A stretch of DNA of 64,000 bases from Chitinophagaceae bacterium (GTDB lineage: Bacteria; Bacteroidota; Bacteroidia; Chitinophagales; Chitinophagaceae), in the NCBI GenBank assembly GCA_023957575.1, contig JAMLGU010000013.1:3053-67052 (forward strand), in the 5' to 3' direction. Each line of letters begins with the position of its first letter. Positions within the stretch are counted from its first letter, which is position 1. Below the pieces are notes generated by a model. The model worked only from the letters and a program-made list of their open reading frames with translations. It did no database searches and had not been told where the DNA came from. Of the stretch, positions 33,872-40,969 are shown piece by piece. Made by a program: the position numbers and the translations under genes.

Positions 33872-34405
33872 TTATTTATTTTTTGATTCTCTAAATTTTT
33901 TCTGAATTTTCATTTCCTCTTTTGTTACAATTAGGTTTATATACATTCGGTTGGCCTTCATTTGAAGAATATAAACCGGCATTTCCAAAGCAGGCGCTCT
34001 ATATTCATTAACATAATAAATTTCATACTCGGGAAAGGCATCTTCTACTCTTATTTTCACATCTTCGGATAACAATTCCGGATAGTATTTTCTAAGAGTT
34101 TGAACCCAGTTGCCGTTTTTGTCAAAAGATACTGCGAAGGATTGTTCGGTTTGACCAAAGTAGCCGATTTTTCCACCTTTAACAGATTGCCAACTAACGG
34201 CTCTTGCATTTGGGTAAAACTTTTCCAAATGCACTGCAGTCTTTACCTCTGACTTGGTTATTTTGACTTCCGGAGCCAGATGATTAGTGATTGGTTTCTG
34301 GTGGGGGTTGGATTTCAAAGAAAGTTTAGCAAACTCCTGTGCATGAGTGATAAAAGTGGCGCTCATTGCGCTCATCATTAACGACAAAATTAAATTTGTT
34401 TTCAT
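33872..34405 (-). CDS. Secreted protein, PepSY-like/BLIP-like domain
   Basis: Signal peptide; F..FYPNA..V.W, FDKNGNW, V...FPEY.I pattern. Confidence 0.6.
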   Translation of the reverse strand: MKTNLILSLMMSAMSATFITHAQEFAKLSLKSNPHQKPITNHLAPEVKITKSEVKTAVHLEKFYPNARAVSWQSVKGGKIGYFGQTEQSFAVSFDKNGNWVQTLRKYYPELLSEDVKIRVEDAFPEYEIYYVNEYRAPALEMPVYILQMKANRMYINLIVTKEEMKIQKKFRESKNK

Positions 34406-34516
34406 AATTGGTGTTTTTAATTGATTAAATAGAAATTTATTTTGAAAAGGTGATTAATTTTTACTTCATCTCTGGGTTTGATTTTTATTGTATCCCTTTG
34501 ACGAACCCCATCATTG

Positions 34517-36013
34517 TTATGAGGCTACGGCAGTGTAATTTTGCGGCAGCAGTAGGTGTAGGTCATTCTTAGCTGTAACATTTATCTTCTCAAACAGGTG
34601 AGTCAGCCATTTCTCAGGATTGACACCATGCAGTCGGCAGGTGGCAAACAGACTGTATAACATAGCGGCATCCTGGGCCCGCTCATGGCTTCCGGCAAAC
34701 AGATAGTTCTTTCTGCCTAAAGCCACCGGGCGGATACTGTTTTCAACTAAGTTGTTATCTATCTGCAATTTGCCATCAGTAGTATAGAGGCACAACTTCT
34801 CCCATCGCTTCAGCGTATAGCTTATCGCCTTGCCCAGCTTGGAGAGGATGGCAATGATTTTACAAGAAAATCCTGTAATAGTTTTTTAAGCGCTGTGTAA
34901 GAATGGGTACCGCATGGGTGAATCGGTATTCTTTTATCTGTTCCTAAAGGTAAGGCATTCATCTCTGCAGTGCGCTTCTATTTCGTAGAGTCGCTGTATT
35001 TCTGTCAGTATCTTTTCTGCACCGGCATTATCATAATCTTTTGAAGCGTCATAAAACTTGCGCCTGGCATGTGCCCAGCAGCATAGTGTGGTAACGCCTT
35101 CTACTTTATCGAAGGTTTCGTAAGCATCATAACCGTCTGTTTGAAGGTAGCCTTTAAACCTGTACAACATGCTCTGCGGATAAATAGCGCCTCTGCCCGG
35201 CTGGTAATCGAACAATGCTAACTTCCTGCCTGTATCGTAATACACCCAGTAGTATCGGTGAAGCTGATGCCCTTTTTATCTTTATCTAATACCTTAATGG
35301 TGGTCTCATCTACACCAAGGTAATCAGTGTTCAGAACCTCTTTACAGTGCAGGTTATATACCGGCTCTATAAGTTCATAGCATCCTTTATCCACCCTGAT
35401 ACTGTGTGGTTGATGGTGCATCCTGTCTTTTAAATATCTCAAGCTGACGATAGACTGGCTGGTGATCTACCCATTTGCTTACCAAAAGATGCGTGAGCAG
35501 TATTGGGCGCACGATGGACTTTTCCAAAGGCATGGCCGGCAGAGCAGCTATCACACGCCTGGCATTTTAATCTGTCCTCAGTTATTTCAATATATTCAGG
35601 ACGTACATATTGTTTTCGACAACTCTCGGGCTGATATTCCAATACCTCTTTACTTCACGGCCTACTTCTTTTAAATTACTTACATCTCCATCGGGCTGTA
35701 GTGTGATTCTTCCGCTCACGAAGCCCTTCTGGTAACGGATTACGGCCAGGATGATTTACGTTGAGTCTGGTTTGCTTTTTTTCAAATGATTTTATCAGCG
35801 TGGTTTTTTATCACGGTATGCTCACCAATTTATCATCAGGGAACAAGTCTGGTTGCACCACATTGGTATTGGATGATTGCTGAATAATTTTCTCCTTGCT
35901 GCCAAAGAAGATCCTTTTTTGAGCTCCGCTAACTGTAATTGCAGCGACTGTATCTGTAGTTGTGCTTGCTCGTAAAGGGCTTTATAATCGGTATGTGTAG
36001 GGATTGTCTCGAT
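34517..36013 (-). pseudogene. tnpC: IS66 TnpC transposase, multiply frameshifted
   Basis: Fragments in several frames: DETTIKVL, FDYQPGRG, YLQTDGY, CWAHARRKF, IDNNLVENSIRPVALGRKNYLF. Confidence 0.9.
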
Positions 36014-36093
36014 GAAACAATGTATAGGCAATAAGAATGCCAACAGTTGGCTGCAATGCAGTATTGGCAGTAGTTTCAGCCAATATGGCTGTA

Positions 36094-36715
36094 TCTTCTT
36101 ATAACGGATACTTTTTAATACCACACCGTTTAAAATGTATTGTAACTGATGAGCTGTCATGTTATATCCGATAGCTATCGGATGGCCGGTGTGCTCTGAT
36201 ACCGGTCGCTCAAAAGTGCCACGCTCTAATCCTTTTTCATACAAGGCAAATCCGTCACCATCCCATTGCAACATTTATTTTATTACCCCGCCGACTGATG
36301 AAAATGAATACATCGCCACTACAGGTACATCCTGGTTCATTTCATTACGCACCAAACCGCTGAGCTGTAAGCCCCTTGCCATATCCGTCGGACCAGTGTA
36401 ATAAAAGCGGCGGCAGCTGGTGTGCTCAGAATGCAACGCATGCCGATTAACTTTGATGGTGACTGTATTTATTTCACCGACGAAACTAAGCTGTACGCCA
36501 TTGGGGTAGGTTACCTCAATGGATGAATCTCTGCCTACATGAATCGGAGTGAAGCCTGCAACTTTCCTTTCCGAGAGTTTTCTATGCCAATAATAATAGT
36601 TGGATTTTACTATTCCGTTTTGTGCACAATATTCTGTAACTGTTAACCCGCTGATGCTTTGAGCCTCTATATGTCGCCGCATAACTTTTGCCTTAGAATC
36701 ATTACTAGTCTTCAT
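36094..36715 (-). pseudogene. IS66 TnpA plus frameshifted TnpB
   Basis: TnpA SGLTV.EYC...GI..S.YYYW.RKL; TnpB pieces TDM..G..LSGLV and LQWDGDGFALYEK.LERGTF in different frames. Confidence 0.8.
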
Positions 36716-36906
36716 CCCGCAAATATCAACTTATCAAACTGCACCGAAAATATAGGGTTGGCCGACAGGATACGGTTTTCAAATTATTCTTCAATCGGAT
36801 TAGCCAACCGACCTGATTTTAAGAAAGCAAGTTTCGAATTAACTCAAAACAAGACAATTAAGGTAAAAGTGATTTATATGTAATTCTACTAATCTTGTAA
36901 GTACGC

Positions 36907-37038
36907 CTCAAACGGTTTCCAGCTTTGCGTTCGGGCAGGTTTCGGAGCACAAAAGTTGATATTATTACTAAAGGCCAATTGAAAAACCACACTTGAATTT
37001 AGCACTTCAGCCCGCCTGAGGCAAAATCCTTGTTGGGC
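36907..37038 (-). other. attC-like recombination site (integron cassette type)
   Basis: Minus strand: GCCCAAC (RYYYAAC) 12 nt after the PIN stop; arm ttttgcctcaggcgggc pairs imperfectly with acctgcccgaacgcaaagc; ends at ccGTT (36913-36911); ~132 bp. Confidence 0.65.
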
Positions 37039-37050
37039 AGTCGTTCCTTT

Positions 37051-37533
37051 CTATCCAAAATCAAGAACTCCAAATGTTTCGTTGTATGGTTTGTTCAAGT
37101 CAATAAATTGAAATTTTGGATTTGTATGCTCCTTTAATAAGTTGTAGATTTTCAAACTCTCTGTGTCTGATGAAAGATAAAATTCCACCGATTTTTCGCA
37201 GTCAGCTTGTGCAAACAATTTAGTATCGTTTGGGATAATATTTCTTTCATTCAGTTTAAGTTTCGCTTTGTTTTGAAAAACAATTTTTGCAAATTCTCCT
37301 GTTCGTTTTGAATGGTCAAGATTAAACGGAACAATTTGAAGATTTTTCAATGGCAATTCGTGAATGTCTCCACCAACACAATACTCTGCAATGGAAATTG
37401 TTGAAATCATCATTGTGATTTCGTGTCCAATGAAATAGCGAAAATAATTGTCAGCGTTTTTGTAAAGTGGACTTTCATCATTTAGAAATCGAAGAAAAAA
37501 GCTGGTATCAAGTAATACAGATTTACGCGTCAT
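37051..37533 (-). CDS. PIN-domain ribonuclease (VapC-like)
   Basis: VLLDTSFF, ISTISIAEY, PNDTKLFAQA, YLSSD carry the four PIN acidic residues. Confidence 0.75.
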   Translation of the reverse strand: MTRKSVLLDTSFFLRFLNDESPLYKNADNYFRYFIGHEITMMISTISIAEYCVGGDIHELPLKNLQIVPFNLDHSKRTGEFAKIVFQNKAKLKLNERNIIPNDTKLFAQADCEKSVEFYLSSDTESLKIYNLLKEHTNPKFQFIDLNKPYNETFGVLDFG

Positions 37534-38305
37534 AACCTCCTCTTATTTCTGTTAACCAATTATCTGCATTAATATTTCCAAGCCACGATTTTTTTGCTTT
37601 ATCTCGTAAACTTTTCAAGTATAGTTCATCATATTTAGGTTGATAGTCAACAAGCTCTACAAACTTCAATGTAGATGTATCAATTTCTCCTGTTTCAGAA
37701 TGTTGTTTGCCAGTTGCTCTTATTCCAAGTGTTTTATATAGCAAATTGTCATCATACTCTTCTAAAAAAGTTATTGGTGTTTGAACCCTTACTGTTCCTA
37801 AATCTTCTGTATATATATGAATATTGGCTTTATCTTTTCCTCCAGCATTAGTCACTTTGCCATAAAAATAAAATTCTGCTTCTGCCCAAATTGCCTCTGT
37901 TCGCTTAAATTTTGTTGTTCTATCAACATATACTTCGTTTGTGTTTTCAAGTGAAGTTTTGATACTAATAACGTAGTTTTTCTTTGAAGCAATGTCTTGT
38001 ATGTTTTCAAATGCTTTTGCGGTTGAAAGGTCTAAAAAGTCAATATTTTGAACTTGATTAACTTGCCCAATAATGGCATTGAACCCAATTATGTATTGAA
38101 TTGAAGTTTTCAGAATATGCTTTACTGAGCCCTTTTCAATATTGTAACTTATTGTTGGTCTATCTTTTTTGTCGTTAGGGTATAGAAGGTTTTCTGCGTT
38201 TTCAAGAATTGAAATAATTTCCCGAATATCATAATTGTCAGGTGATAGTTCAAGATTTCCTTTTGAACCACTTATTTTAATTTCTATGTAACCTAATTTA
38301 TCCAC
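37523..38305 (-). CDS. Uncharacterised ~260-aa protein coupled to the PIN gene (GTG start at 38305)
   Basis: Long AT-rich ORF overlapping the PIN start by 11 nt; no family recognised. Confidence 0.8.
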   Translation of the reverse strand: MDKLGYIEIKISGSKGNLELSPDNYDIREIISILENAENLLYPNDKKDRPTISYNIEKGSVKHILKTSIQYIIGFNAIIGQVNQVQNIDFLDLSTAKAFENIQDIASKKNYVISIKTSLENTNEVYVDRTTKFKRTEAIWAEAEFYFYGKVTNAGGKDKANIHIYTEDLGTVRVQTPITFLEEYDDNLLYKTLGIRATGKQHSETGEIDTSTLKFVELVDYQPKYDELYLKSLRDKAKKSWLGNINADNWLTEIRGGYDA

Positions 38306-38347
38306 AATGCAAAATAACAAATAATTTTTTGAAAGTCAGTGTTGTTT

Positions 38348-39582
38348 CAGGGCAGACGCATTAAAAATATGTAGTAATCCACAGGTGTGGAAATAAAGTT
38401 GCTTGTAAATCAAATTGAATACCCGGACTTGCAGTTCCAAAAAGCTATGACAGCCATTATGGAACATTTTGGTCAGTTACCAGATCCGCGAACTAAAGAG
38501 CATAAAATCATTCATAAGCTCTATGACATTGTATTTATTACTATAGCGGCGGTTATATGTGGGGCAGAAGACTGGTATGATATTGAGGACTATGGGGAAG
38601 CTAACCAACAATGGCTTAGCCGTTTTCTGGAACTACCCGGTGGTCTGCCGTCACACGATACATACAACCGTGTGTTTTCGCTATTTGATCCGCAGGCTTT
38701 GCAGCAGTGTTTTGTGGGTTGGGTACAAAGCATTGCCCATATAAGTGAAGGGCAAGTAGTGAGTATTGATGGCAAACAGCTACGCCACAGCGGCGAGCAG
38801 GGAGGTAAAAGCATTATTCACATGGTAAGCGCCTGGAGCAATGCCAATAATATGGTGTTGGGGCGACTAAAAGTAAACGATAAGAGTAATGAGATTACGG
38901 CTATTCCTGCTTTATTGGAAGTATTGATGCTAAAAGGATGCTGGATTACTATTGATGCCATGGGTTGTCAAATCGAAATAGCCAAAAAGATCAGGGAAGT
39001 GGGGGCTGAATATATCCTCGCAGTAAAAGATAATCAAAAGCACCTGAATGATGACATTAAGGAAGCTTTTGCACAGACGCCGCAAACGGCAAGTCATACG
39101 CAATTAAATGTAGATCATGGTCGCATAGAAAAACGTATCTGCCGTATTATAACAGATATGGACTGGATTTGCAGTAAAGATCAATGGGAAGGGCTTCAAA
39201 CCATTATAGAAATAATAAGTGAGCGAACCCATAAAGCGACCGGAGAAAAAGAAAAGCAGGTTCGCCATTATATAAGCAGTATAAAGGCGCCGGCTGAAGC
39301 CTTCAATACTGCTATAAGGGAACATTGGGGCATAGAGAACAAACTGCATTGGGTTTTAGATGTTTGTTTTGGAGAAGATATGAGTACTAAAAGGGCAGGA
39401 ACTGCTGCCGAGAATTTTTCTTTTGTTAGCAAGGTAGCCCTTAACCTGCTCAATCAATCAGAAGAGAGAAAGGGTGGCAAAAAGCTTAGCATCAAACGAA
39501 AAAGAAAAAAGGCAGACAGAGATAAGGATTATTTGTTATCGCTTTTGGCTAAAGCCGGATAACTTTTAATGCGTCTGCCCTG
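38348..39582 (+). mobile_element. ISAs1-family insertion sequence, intact (1235 bp)
   Basis: Perfect 19-bp TIRs cagggcagacgcattaaaa; perfect 10-bp TSD agtgttgttt (38338-38347 and 39583-39592). Confidence 0.95.
38447..39562 (+). CDS. ISAs1 (H-repeat) transposase
   Basis: PSHDT..RVF, IDGKQLR, KSNEITAIP, TIDAMGCQ, VKDNQ, HGRIEKR, HWGIENKLHWVLDV. Confidence 0.95.
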   Translation: MTAIMEHFGQLPDPRTKEHKIIHKLYDIVFITIAAVICGAEDWYDIEDYGEANQQWLSRFLELPGGLPSHDTYNRVFSLFDPQALQQCFVGWVQSIAHISEGQVVSIDGKQLRHSGEQGGKSIIHMVSAWSNANNMVLGRLKVNDKSNEITAIPALLEVLMLKGCWITIDAMGCQIEIAKKIREVGAEYILAVKDNQKHLNDDIKEAFAQTPQTASHTQLNVDHGRIEKRICRIITDMDWICSKDQWEGLQTIIEIISERTHKATGEKEKQVRHYISSIKAPAEAFNTAIREHWGIENKLHWVLDVCFGEDMSTKRAGTAAENFSFVSKVALNLLNQSEERKGGKKLSIKRKRKKADRDKDYLLSLLAKAG

Positions 39583-39639
39583 AGTGTTGTTTGTTGTTTT
39601 GTCAAAAGTTGAATTTTGCCACTGTTTTGGTGGAATGAC

Positions 39640-39646
39640 GCCCAAC
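39640..39646 (-). other. Cassette 5' core site GTTGGGC
   Basis: Matches GTTRRRY and is the exact complement of the GCCCAAC at 37032-37038. Confidence 0.55.
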
Positions 39647-39754
39647 TTGAATAAAGGCGCACTTAATTCAGGTCAATAGGACTGTTAAAATAAAAGCAAA
39701 CGAAGGCATCCAATCAATCGTTAAACCTACGCCTATTATTCACCTAAAAAAGAC

Positions 39755-40969
39755 TTAAGAGTCGTATTCTTTTTTCCAATATTCTGTTTTGCCTGATTTT
39801 ACTGCATTATTTCCCAAATGAACAGAAATTGCGGTTTGTTTGCCTTTTTCGGCATCTGCAAAAACCTTTTTGCCTGTCAATATACTCTCGGCAAAAGCCT
39901 CTAAAGCATAAACGGAAGGGTCTTTTCCTTCGTTATCTGTATATACATTGAGGCCGGTGCCATTATCAAGCGCTTCTTTGGTAGCACCGGTTACGCCGTC
40001 TAAAATGATTTTTTCTTTTTTCTTTCTTTCTACAAATAAGGTAGCCTTATTTCGTCCTACTTCTAAAGTACCCTCATTGCCATAAAGTCTGATACGATAT
40101 CCGTCAAACTCATTACTTAGAATGGATATCACATTCATTTTTACGCCATTAGCATAGCCATAAACGGCATGAACATTATCCCAACAGGTACGCCCGTCTT
40201 TATAAAAATTTATATCTCCCATGGCTGACACTTTTTCGGGGGTAGCGCCTAACAGCCAGTTGACCACGTCAATCTGATGTGATGACAGTTCGCCCAGTAC
40301 GCCACCCGATAAATGCTGGTACATGCGCCAATTTACAATTTTACCGGTTTTTGGGTCTTTACAATACCCTGATTCCCAGTCGGAATTACGATTATACTGG
40401 CACTCGATTCGGGTAATTTGGCCAATTAAATTTTCGGTAATCAGGGATTTTAAGCGAGGAAACATTTCATAATAGCGGTATTGATGCCCAATTTGCAGTA
40501 CCTGTTTTTTTATGCCCTTCATTTTTTTTGCCAGTAATACTGCCTGCTCAATATTGGTGGTCATTGTTTTTTCAAGATAAATGTGCTTACCGGCGCTTAT
40601 GGCATTCATCGCCATTGGGAAATGTTCAAAAATAGGAGTGGTAATAAAAACCGCATCAATACTTTTGTCATCCAGCATCCGACGGTAATCTGTGAAAGAT
40701 GTAGCGTTTTCACCTGCTCTTTTTAATCCACCGGCAAGATTATCGGGCATTATATCACAAACAGCAGAAACATTCAACTGATTGATATTACTGTTTTTTA
40801 TTGTATGTATTAATCCCTGCCCACGGTGCCCGGTTCCAATAAAGCCGACGTTTATGCTGTCTTTTCTATTTTTCAATATATGTATTCCCGAAAAATCGGT
40901 AAGGGCCACTCCCGCCAATCCAAATGCTGAGTTTTTGATAAAATTTTTGCGGCTGATATTTTTTTTCAT
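39755..40969 (-). CDS. Gfo/Idh/MocA oxidoreductase with Tat-like signal
   Basis: ISRKNFIK, GFIGTG.RG, LEKTM, ELSSHQID. Confidence 0.88.
   Translation of the reverse strand: MKKNISRKNFIKNSAFGLAGVALTDFSGIHILKNRKDSINVGFIGTGHRGQGLIHTIKNSNINQLNVSAVCDIMPDNLAGGLKRAGENATSFTDYRRMLDDKSIDAVFITTPIFEHFPMAMNAISAGKHIYLEKTMTTNIEQAVLLAKKMKGIKKQVLQIGHQYRYYEMFPRLKSLITENLIGQITRIECQYNRNSDWESGYCKDPKTGKIVNWRMYQHLSGGVLGELSSHQIDVVNWLLGATPEKVSAMGDINFYKDGRTCWDNVHAVYGYANGVKMNVISILSNEFDGYRIRLYGNEGTLEVGRNKATLFVERKKKEKIILDGVTGATKEALDNGTGLNVYTDNEGKDPSVYALEAFAESILTGKKVFADAEKGKQTAISVHLGNNAVKSGKTEYWKKEYDS

Follow-up and report, generated by a model that had tools for sequence, protein, structure and literature searches.

Toxin-antitoxin (TA) modules of the VapBC and FitAB type combine a toxin of the PIN fold with a small antitoxin, 70-90 amino acids (aa) in length, that carries a DNA-binding domain (AbrB, ribbon-helix-helix (RHH), Phd/YefM or helix-turn-helix (HTH)), and the tails of VapB and FitA put an Arg into the acidic active site of VapC and FitB, respectively. 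VapC toxins are known to act on the anticodon loops of tRNAs and on the sarcin-ricin loop of 23S rRNA. VapC-like PINs with large partners other than VapB are also found in proven defence systems, such as HEC-03, which consists of an ABC ATPase and a VapC-like PIN (bioRxiv 10.1101/2024.01.29.577857). Moreover, TA pairs (higBA, parDE, phd-doc, ccd) are carried as cassettes by the sedentary chromosomal integrons of Vibrio (PMC8618304, PMC13108822); integrons are known in Bacteroidota too, and a cassette that has a promoter of its own and two open reading frames (ORFs) is typically a TA system (PMC8618304). Here we describe a widespread, uncharacterised two-gene module (genes A and B) found in 64,000 nt of DNA from a Chitinophagaceae bacterium (assembly GCA_023957575.1, contig JAMLGU010000013.1, positions 3,053 to 67,052), a stretch that, taken as a whole, is called the window below. 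We considered the module as a form of the type II PIN TA theme with a novel large partner, in an integron-type cassette, and we think it reasonably probable that A restrains a toxic B in what would be a mobile TA-like module.

Of the described systems, the module is most like VapBC and FitAB. As in these, a PIN of the VapC fold with the four acidic residues is encoded by the second gene of an overlapping pair whose first gene encodes the partner, the distribution is mobile and patchy, decay falls on the toxin gene and spares the partner, and the partner ends in a predicted helical tail with a conserved Arg. However, one defining feature, the small antitoxin with a DNA-binding domain, fails: the partner is 260 aa long instead of 70-90 aa, instead of an AbrB, RHH, Phd/YefM or HTH domain its model has an N-domain of alpha/beta type and an OB-like barrel that is acidic, it is conserved as much as the toxin (ratio of nonsynonymous to synonymous substitution rates, dN/dS, of 0.06), and B scores under the Pfam cut-off for PIN. 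With HEC-03 the module shares the two-gene layout, the VapC-like PIN with a large partner unrelated to VapB and, in one clade, a position beside a type I restriction-modification (R-M) operon, whereas A has neither an ATPase domain nor a sequence relation to HEC-03A, and a defence role is in our case a proposal. With the Vibrio TA cassettes it shares the two ORFs, the GTTRRRY/RYYYAAC core sites, an attC-like imperfect palindrome and the probable promoter of its own, but it differs in protein families and phylum (Bacteroidota), in having no integrase within 6 kb at the loci tested and, for the copy in the window, in being split by an insertion sequence (IS) and having a decayed attC. Literature searches found no description of the A-B pair, and it matched no named system in the libraries searched (Pfam, NCBIfam, PADLOC-DB v2.0, PHROGs), which agrees with a preliminary description of this locus, made from the sequence alone, as a candidate new system. 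Precisely, in PADLOC-DB v2.0 there was no match for B, and for A only one to RT_IV (E = 0.005 over 77 residues) that we judged to be noise.

The two genes are the following (coordinates are positions in the window, and the relative loci that were compared are cited, where needed, by L-numbers such as L056 or L087):

37523-38305, minus strand: gene A, 260 aa with a GTG start, of an unnamed family, putative antitoxin or regulator of the PIN protein
37051-37533, minus strand: gene B, 160 aa, VapC-like PIN nuclease

According to the ORF list, both genes lie on the minus strand and overlap by 11 nt (37523-37533). Their G+C content is 0.31-0.34, versus 0.38-0.45 in the flanks, so that the two overlapping AT-rich genes reported before were recovered. 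An alternative TTG start of A at 38320 would add five residues (265 aa); the GTG was preferred because the homologues of A are 260 aa long and begin at the position of the GTG/ATG.

B is a VapC-type PIN protein, on the evidence of its conserved acidic residues and its structural matches. It has 2763 homologues in the databases. Its score against Pfam PIN (PF01850) was 19.4 bits (E = 0.0017), so that the gathering cut-off of 23.6 was not reached, and a search of PDB sequences with B, either as a single sequence or as a profile, gave no match. In an alignment of B partners down to 28% identity, E50, D103 and D123 were invariant, and likewise T10, S44, T45, R97, K105 and Q109. D9 was kept in eight of the nine divergent B partners and in at least 90% of 28 sequences; it was replaced by Ala in the B of one Flavobacteriaceae clade only (L087-L091), in which both genes are retained. 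The AlphaFold model of B, computed from a shallow alignment, had the alpha/beta/alpha fold of PIN proteins (pLDDT 84.4, pTM 0.83). When it was searched with Foldseek, the top 25 matches were, with few exceptions, VapC/FitB toxins of TA systems (TM 0.6-0.7, probability 1.0, E down to 5e-5), the best being 4chg_A (E 5e-5); they included VapC15, Shigella VapC, VapC2, VapC11 and FitB, that is, toxins from solved TA complexes.

For A, 1862 database homologues were found, all annotated as hypothetical and without a Pfam domain, and an exhaustive search gave 532 clusters at 50% identity, nearly all of 255-261 aa. Neither A, as a single sequence or a profile, nor 50 diverse relatives had a match in Pfam, NCBIfam, PHROG or PDB sequences, or a meaningful one in PADLOC, and no HTH or RHH domain was found in A. 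The conserved motifs of the family are YxYGxIxxAGGKxxxNIHLxT, NxLYK, GKQNxxTGExD and, at the C-terminus, WLxExRG. The AlphaFold model of A (pLDDT 90.5) has three parts. Residues 1-127 are predicted to form a strongly conserved alpha/beta N-domain, for which the structural search gave no informative match. Residues 140-219 are predicted to form a five-stranded OB-like barrel, acidic (pI 4.8), for which Foldseek returned OB folds only (the OB domain of ExoVII, RPA32/14, the Rim1 single-stranded DNA-binding protein, IF1/aIF1A; E 3.5e-3 and above, probability about 1). The third part consists of two C-terminal helices (227-241 and 247-255) with pLDDT values of 60-73, as expected of a segment that folds upon binding; in this part W241, W250, L251 and R255 are conserved, and R255, at the end of the helices, is near-invariant.

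The preliminary description had read these two proteins in much the same way. All four PIN acidic residues that it assigned to the downstream gene are present (D9, E50, D103 and D123), and the matches to VapC structures agree with them; its upstream protein, unusually large and lacking an HTH or RHH domain, is 260 aa long and without a match in the domain libraries; its OB-like C-terminal half agrees with the AlphaFold model and with Foldseek, as a prediction; and its amphipathic C-terminal tail appears in the model as helices, at lower confidence. As a separate observation, one protein (P0335, 530 aa) has the first ~185 residues of an A homologue fused to a hybrid histidine-kinase/response-regulator/AraC protein, and is probably either an insertion-disrupted gene or a gene-calling chimera.

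The two genes stay together. We considered a set of 80 Bacteroidota genome loci with A at 74-94% identity (Bacteroidales, Chitinophagales, Cytophagales, Flavobacteriales and Sphingobacteriales); B was directly downstream of A in 79 of them, well beyond chance, and A was upstream of B in every metagenome locus that could be assessed, so that the constant pairing proposed as a check in the preliminary description was found. In an all-against-all clustering of the flanking ORFs only A (78 loci) and B (73 loci) recurred, the next most frequent cluster being represented by generic ABC ATPases in seven loci. The pairing is kept at 20-31% identity (L093, L094, L095, L098, a Bordetella plasmid and a phage contig): the relatives of A at ~30% identity (these four L loci and one more) all have behind them, where complete, an ORF of 157-174 aa that overlaps or abuts the A gene. 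On the Bordetella bronchiseptica plasmid pA (NZ_CP132331.1; L179, 2881-4146) the pair is homologous in both genes, at 20-30% identity and with hhalign probabilities of 99.7 and 99.4. This plasmid, of 39 kb and full of small hypothetical genes, was the sole plasmid match in PLSDB and is possibly a phage-plasmid.

A and B are correlated in their pairwise distances (r = 0.71), and purifying selection is strong on each, with dN/dS values of 0.06 and 0.07, respectively, and synonymous divergence (dS) saturated at about 2. Since the synonymous sites are saturated, the high protein identity reflects constraint and not recent spread. The family, which counts thousands of sequences, was found in Bacteroidota from sludge, freshwater, soil, gut and marine sources, with outliers in Betaproteobacteria, and only some genomes, scattered across orders, carry the pair. 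The A-B pair is an autonomous, co-inherited unit. We also considered that it could be a housekeeping RNA-processing pair or two unrelated genes adjacent by chance. In fact, the nearest neighbours (148 Pfam families in 128 proteins) are mostly housekeeping genes, such as those for SecY, GcpE and tRNA synthetases; but no neighbourhood is conserved across loci while B follows A almost without exception, the G+C content is below that of the flanks, the pair lies between cassette boundaries and IS flanks, and only part of the genomes, spread across orders, has it, and we regard this explanation as very improbable.

The way in which the pair decays bears on whether A restrains B. Among the loci seeded with A, we found B frameshifted, stopped, truncated or deleted next to an intact A in 13 of the 76 that could be assessed; among the loci seeded with B, A was broken next to an apparently intact B in 1/72. 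In this single case (L119, 2131-2842) an in-frame deletion leaves a 77-aa mini-A, with residues 1-16 joined to residues 205-260, hence mostly the C-terminal tail, and B itself is frameshifted at codon 5-6, so that the count becomes 0/72 if the locus is taken as doubly dead. The asymmetry had a Fisher p of 0.0012, or of 0.00015 with L119 as doubly dead. An example is L056 (6001-6809), where a clean deletion has removed B and kept an intact A; a 448-aa ORF, which by eye is like a cell-wall amidase, lies 25 nt further on. The loss of B beside an intact A, and not the reverse, is the pattern that a toxic B neutralised by A would be expected to leave.

The same counts bear on the explanation that A and B are an obligate two-subunit nuclease without auto-toxicity, in which A would provide substrate binding or specificity and so activate or target the PIN protein. 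Strict pairing, co-inheritance and equal purifying selection on the two genes would all fit it, as would a highly conserved, folded A with an OB barrel, this being a common nucleic-acid-binding module. However, if the two subunits depended on each other, decay would be expected in either gene, while the decay found is strongly one-sided; the OB barrel is acidic; and the patchy, mobile distribution (cassettes, plasmid, phage) is typical of selfish or conflict modules. We therefore judged a two-subunit enzyme to be improbable.

The module in the window lies within the remains of a cassette, whose parts and neighbouring elements are as follows:

38306-38347, minus strand: proximal 5' region of the cassette, with a -7-type box TATTTTG at 38310-38316
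38348-39583, plus strand: ISAs1-family IS of 1236 bp, with its transposase at 38387-39562 (Pfam DDE_Tnp_1_assoc, DDE_Tnp_1)
39592-39646, minus strand: distal 5' end of the cassette, with the R' core site GTTGGGC at 39646-39640, then GTCATTCC
36907-37038, minus strand: attC-like relic, with R'' GCCCAAC at 37038-37032, L''/L'-like halves and R' GTTTGAG at 36913-36907
34490-36773, minus strand: IS66-family element (TnpB_IS66, HTH_Tnp_1), which abuts the stub of the next cassette and is outside the module

In many of the relative loci the cassette starts 69-109 nt upstream of A, with GTTRRRY and then GGTCATTC, and ends 5-12 nt past the stop codon of B, with a complementary RYYYAAC site of the GAACGACCGATAAC type; this is followed by an imperfect palindrome of 100-150 nt and then by another GTTRRRY. 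It is by such core sites and an imperfect palindrome that attC sites of integrons are defined. One boundary motif or more was found in 27 of 75 genome loci and in 28 of 66 metagenome loci, where 1-2% would be expected by chance. In the window, once the IS is removed, the core site GTTGGGC is 97 nt upstream of the start of A (69-109 nt in the relatives), and the R'' site GCCCAAC, complementary to it, is 12 nt past the stop codon of B. The sequence GTTRNNSGYSATKC was found once in the window, at the 5' end of the cassette, and 69-109 nt upstream of A in 19/80 loci.

The attC-like site of the window resembles in sequence those of L010, L012, L019 and L071. It keeps both sequence halves and folds no better than shuffled sequences (z +0.7); among the relatives, the sites of L019 (z -2.6), L012 (-3.5) and L038 (-3.7) fold significantly better than shuffles, and those of L010 and L040 do not. 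We considered the end of the IS66-family element as the R' site of the cassette and rejected it, given that the terminus of the element is at 36773 and that the same attC 3' half precedes the starts of cassettes elsewhere (L019). A 33-nt part of this 3' half (36922-36954) had a depth of 24-136x in sludge runs, versus 3-6x for the genes, and continued into several different sequences, hence it is shared with many other cassettes of the community.

No tyrosine recombinase, and so no candidate integron integrase, was found among 20 candidate ORFs within 6 kb of cassette-type loci, all of which encoded transporters, enzymes of other kinds or an IS110 transposase; likewise, there was no integron integrase among the nearest genes in the window, which are housekeeping genes and the two IS elements. 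The loci tested thus resemble integrase-less attC clusters or single attC sites, and attC clusters associated with IS are common (PMC4889954). The copy in the window is best described as a decayed, integrase-less single cassette between insertion sequences. Of the earlier statement that the pair sits alone in an integron-like cassette, the integron-like part stands, with core sites and an attC-like relic, whereas "alone" has to be replaced by a decayed single cassette between two IS, without a nearby integrase in the neighbourhoods tested.

The ISAs1-family element has entered the 5' part of the cassette, 42 nt before the start of A. It has perfect inverted repeats of 20 bp, and 8 bp of the target, GTGTTGTT, were duplicated (38340-38347 and 39584-39591). 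In public sequencing runs loose contig ends were found at 38348 and 39583; the repeat search puts the left arm of the element one base lower than the sequence and the read layout do. The IS66-family element has terminal repeats, flanks that are not a target duplication and loose ends at 36773, and its three genes are frameshifted with respect to the intact copies in L081-L084 (97.7% identity). The block formed by A-B and IS66 travels together in several contigs and runs into at least three different downstream contexts (the window, L081 and L083), which suggests an IS-mediated rearrangement. Just past this element, on the minus strand, there is a 177-aa ORF (33872-34405) with no Pfam match. 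An Rfam scan of 34000-40000 found no RNA family.

The start of A carries a recurrent motif. Precisely, TAnnTTTG ends exactly 4 nt before the start codon of A in 51/80 loci, compared with a chance of 2% per 40-nt window, and the one-base-shorter TAnTTTG is at the same spot in 13 more, including the window (TATTTTG), for a total of 64/80; the start codon of A is GTG in 59/80. A Bacteroides promoter consensus with a -7 box is established, and a box only 4 nt before the start codon suggests a promoter borne by the module and a leaderless or near-leaderless mRNA. We consider it probable, from these sequence features, that the module has its own promoter and that A is translated leaderless from GUG. 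In many loci the -7 box is within a short palindrome, TTACnTTTGTAA, which could be an operator. Inside the gene overlap, just 5' of the ATG of B, the codons for the Arg-Gly-Gly conserved at the C-terminus of A read AGAGGAGG (37534-37545, minus strand), which is Shine-Dalgarno-like; Shine-Dalgarno pairing is rarely used by Bacteroidota. Sludge metatranscriptome runs cover A and B at 3-6x, but the same runs also hold contigs of >100 kb, which points to probable carry-over of DNA, and the coverage may not reflect expression.

Taken as a TA-like module, the pair would work as follows. A would be transcribed first, from the promoter carried by the module, and made before B; it would bind the PIN endoribonuclease B and hold it inactive. 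By analogy with VapB and FitA, the contact would most likely be made by the C-terminal amphipathic helices of A, with Arg255 occluding the acidic PIN site, and the N-domain and the acidic OB barrel would probably add a second function, such as regulation or sensing. If A were lost (with the element, by proteolysis or by a signal acting on the N- and OB-domains), the RNase would be set free and growth would stop. The unit would spread as a two-ORF integron-type cassette, is also found in a plasmid, a phage contig and chromosomal islands, and its selfish, addictive property would stabilise its carrier.

Several points weigh against this reading. The two sets used for the decay counts are different collections, each selected for an intact query gene. 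A is conserved as much as B from end to end, and no DNA-binding domain can be recognised in it; both features are atypical of type II antitoxins. The acidity of the OB barrel makes its ligand unclear. B is under the gathering score of Pfam PIN, and the clade with Ala at position 9 keeps both genes, so that nuclease activity may not always be the selected function. Finally, the metatranscriptome coverage is low and comes from runs that may contain DNA. The preliminary description had inferred a large sensor or antitoxin restraining a PIN RNase, as in abortive-infection TA systems; the pattern of decay, the VapC-type PIN and the constant pairing fit this inference, while its abortive-infection side finds no clear defence enrichment among the immediate neighbours.

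This side corresponds to an explanation that partly overlaps the preferred one, namely that the pair is a two-component anti-phage (abortive-infection) system in which A would sense a phage product and B would be the effector, with defence and not addiction as the selected property. Some of the genomic contexts are consistent with it. In the Flavobacteriaceae clade with A at 59% identity (L087-L091, 10001-11252) the pair is found immediately upstream of a type I R-M operon with genes for SIR2-HerA and Abi_C or, alternatively, for a YobI ATPase, and a few other loci have defence neighbours (SoFic in four loci, AbiEi, a type IV restriction endonuclease, DndH). The pair is also found on an IMG/VR phage contig right after the small and large terminase genes and, on another contig, beside a tyrosine integrase of prophage type and a T7_gp14-like gene (L092, 3581-4835; L093, 2671-5270). 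In addition, HEC-03 gives a proven precedent, and, since A is conserved over its full length, it may well do more than neutralise B by a tail. On the other hand, the immediate neighbours described above are mostly housekeeping genes, so that the enrichment in defence islands proposed as a check in the preliminary description gave no clear signal, with one clade only in a clear defence island, and PADLOC had no meaningful match for either A or B. We regard the anti-phage explanation as possible but rather unlikely.

A related proposal, which we make only tentatively, is that A is a new infection or stress sensor, whose N-domain and acidic OB barrel would recognise a product of a phage or mobile element, or would mimic nucleic acid, and release the VapC-type RNase, in which case the pair would be a new abortive-infection family, spread among Bacteroidota in integron-type cassettes and carried on plasmids and phages as well. 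The anti-phage explanation also draws on a structural likeness: among viral proteins, the best full-length matches of the A model, in BFVD, include a DUF6575 protein (Foldseek E 5e-7). DUF6575 is a domain in one component of a PD system validated in E. coli (Vassallo et al. 2022, PMC9519451). However, the likeness is weak (TM 0.27-0.36, rmsd 10 A) and has no support in sequence, since 0/50 members of the A family match the Pfam model even at E = 5; it could serve as a lead only.

Returning to A as the probable restrainer of a toxic B, the module would add a structurally new and highly constrained class of partners for VapC toxins, and it would give a concrete TA-type cassette, with its own promoter, in the integron-like arrays of Bacteroidota, a phylum poorly covered by the present TA and defence catalogues. 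If A were indeed a sensor, the pair would offer a compact two-gene model for the switching-on of a PIN RNase, with a bearing both on phage defence and on the stability of cassette arrays.

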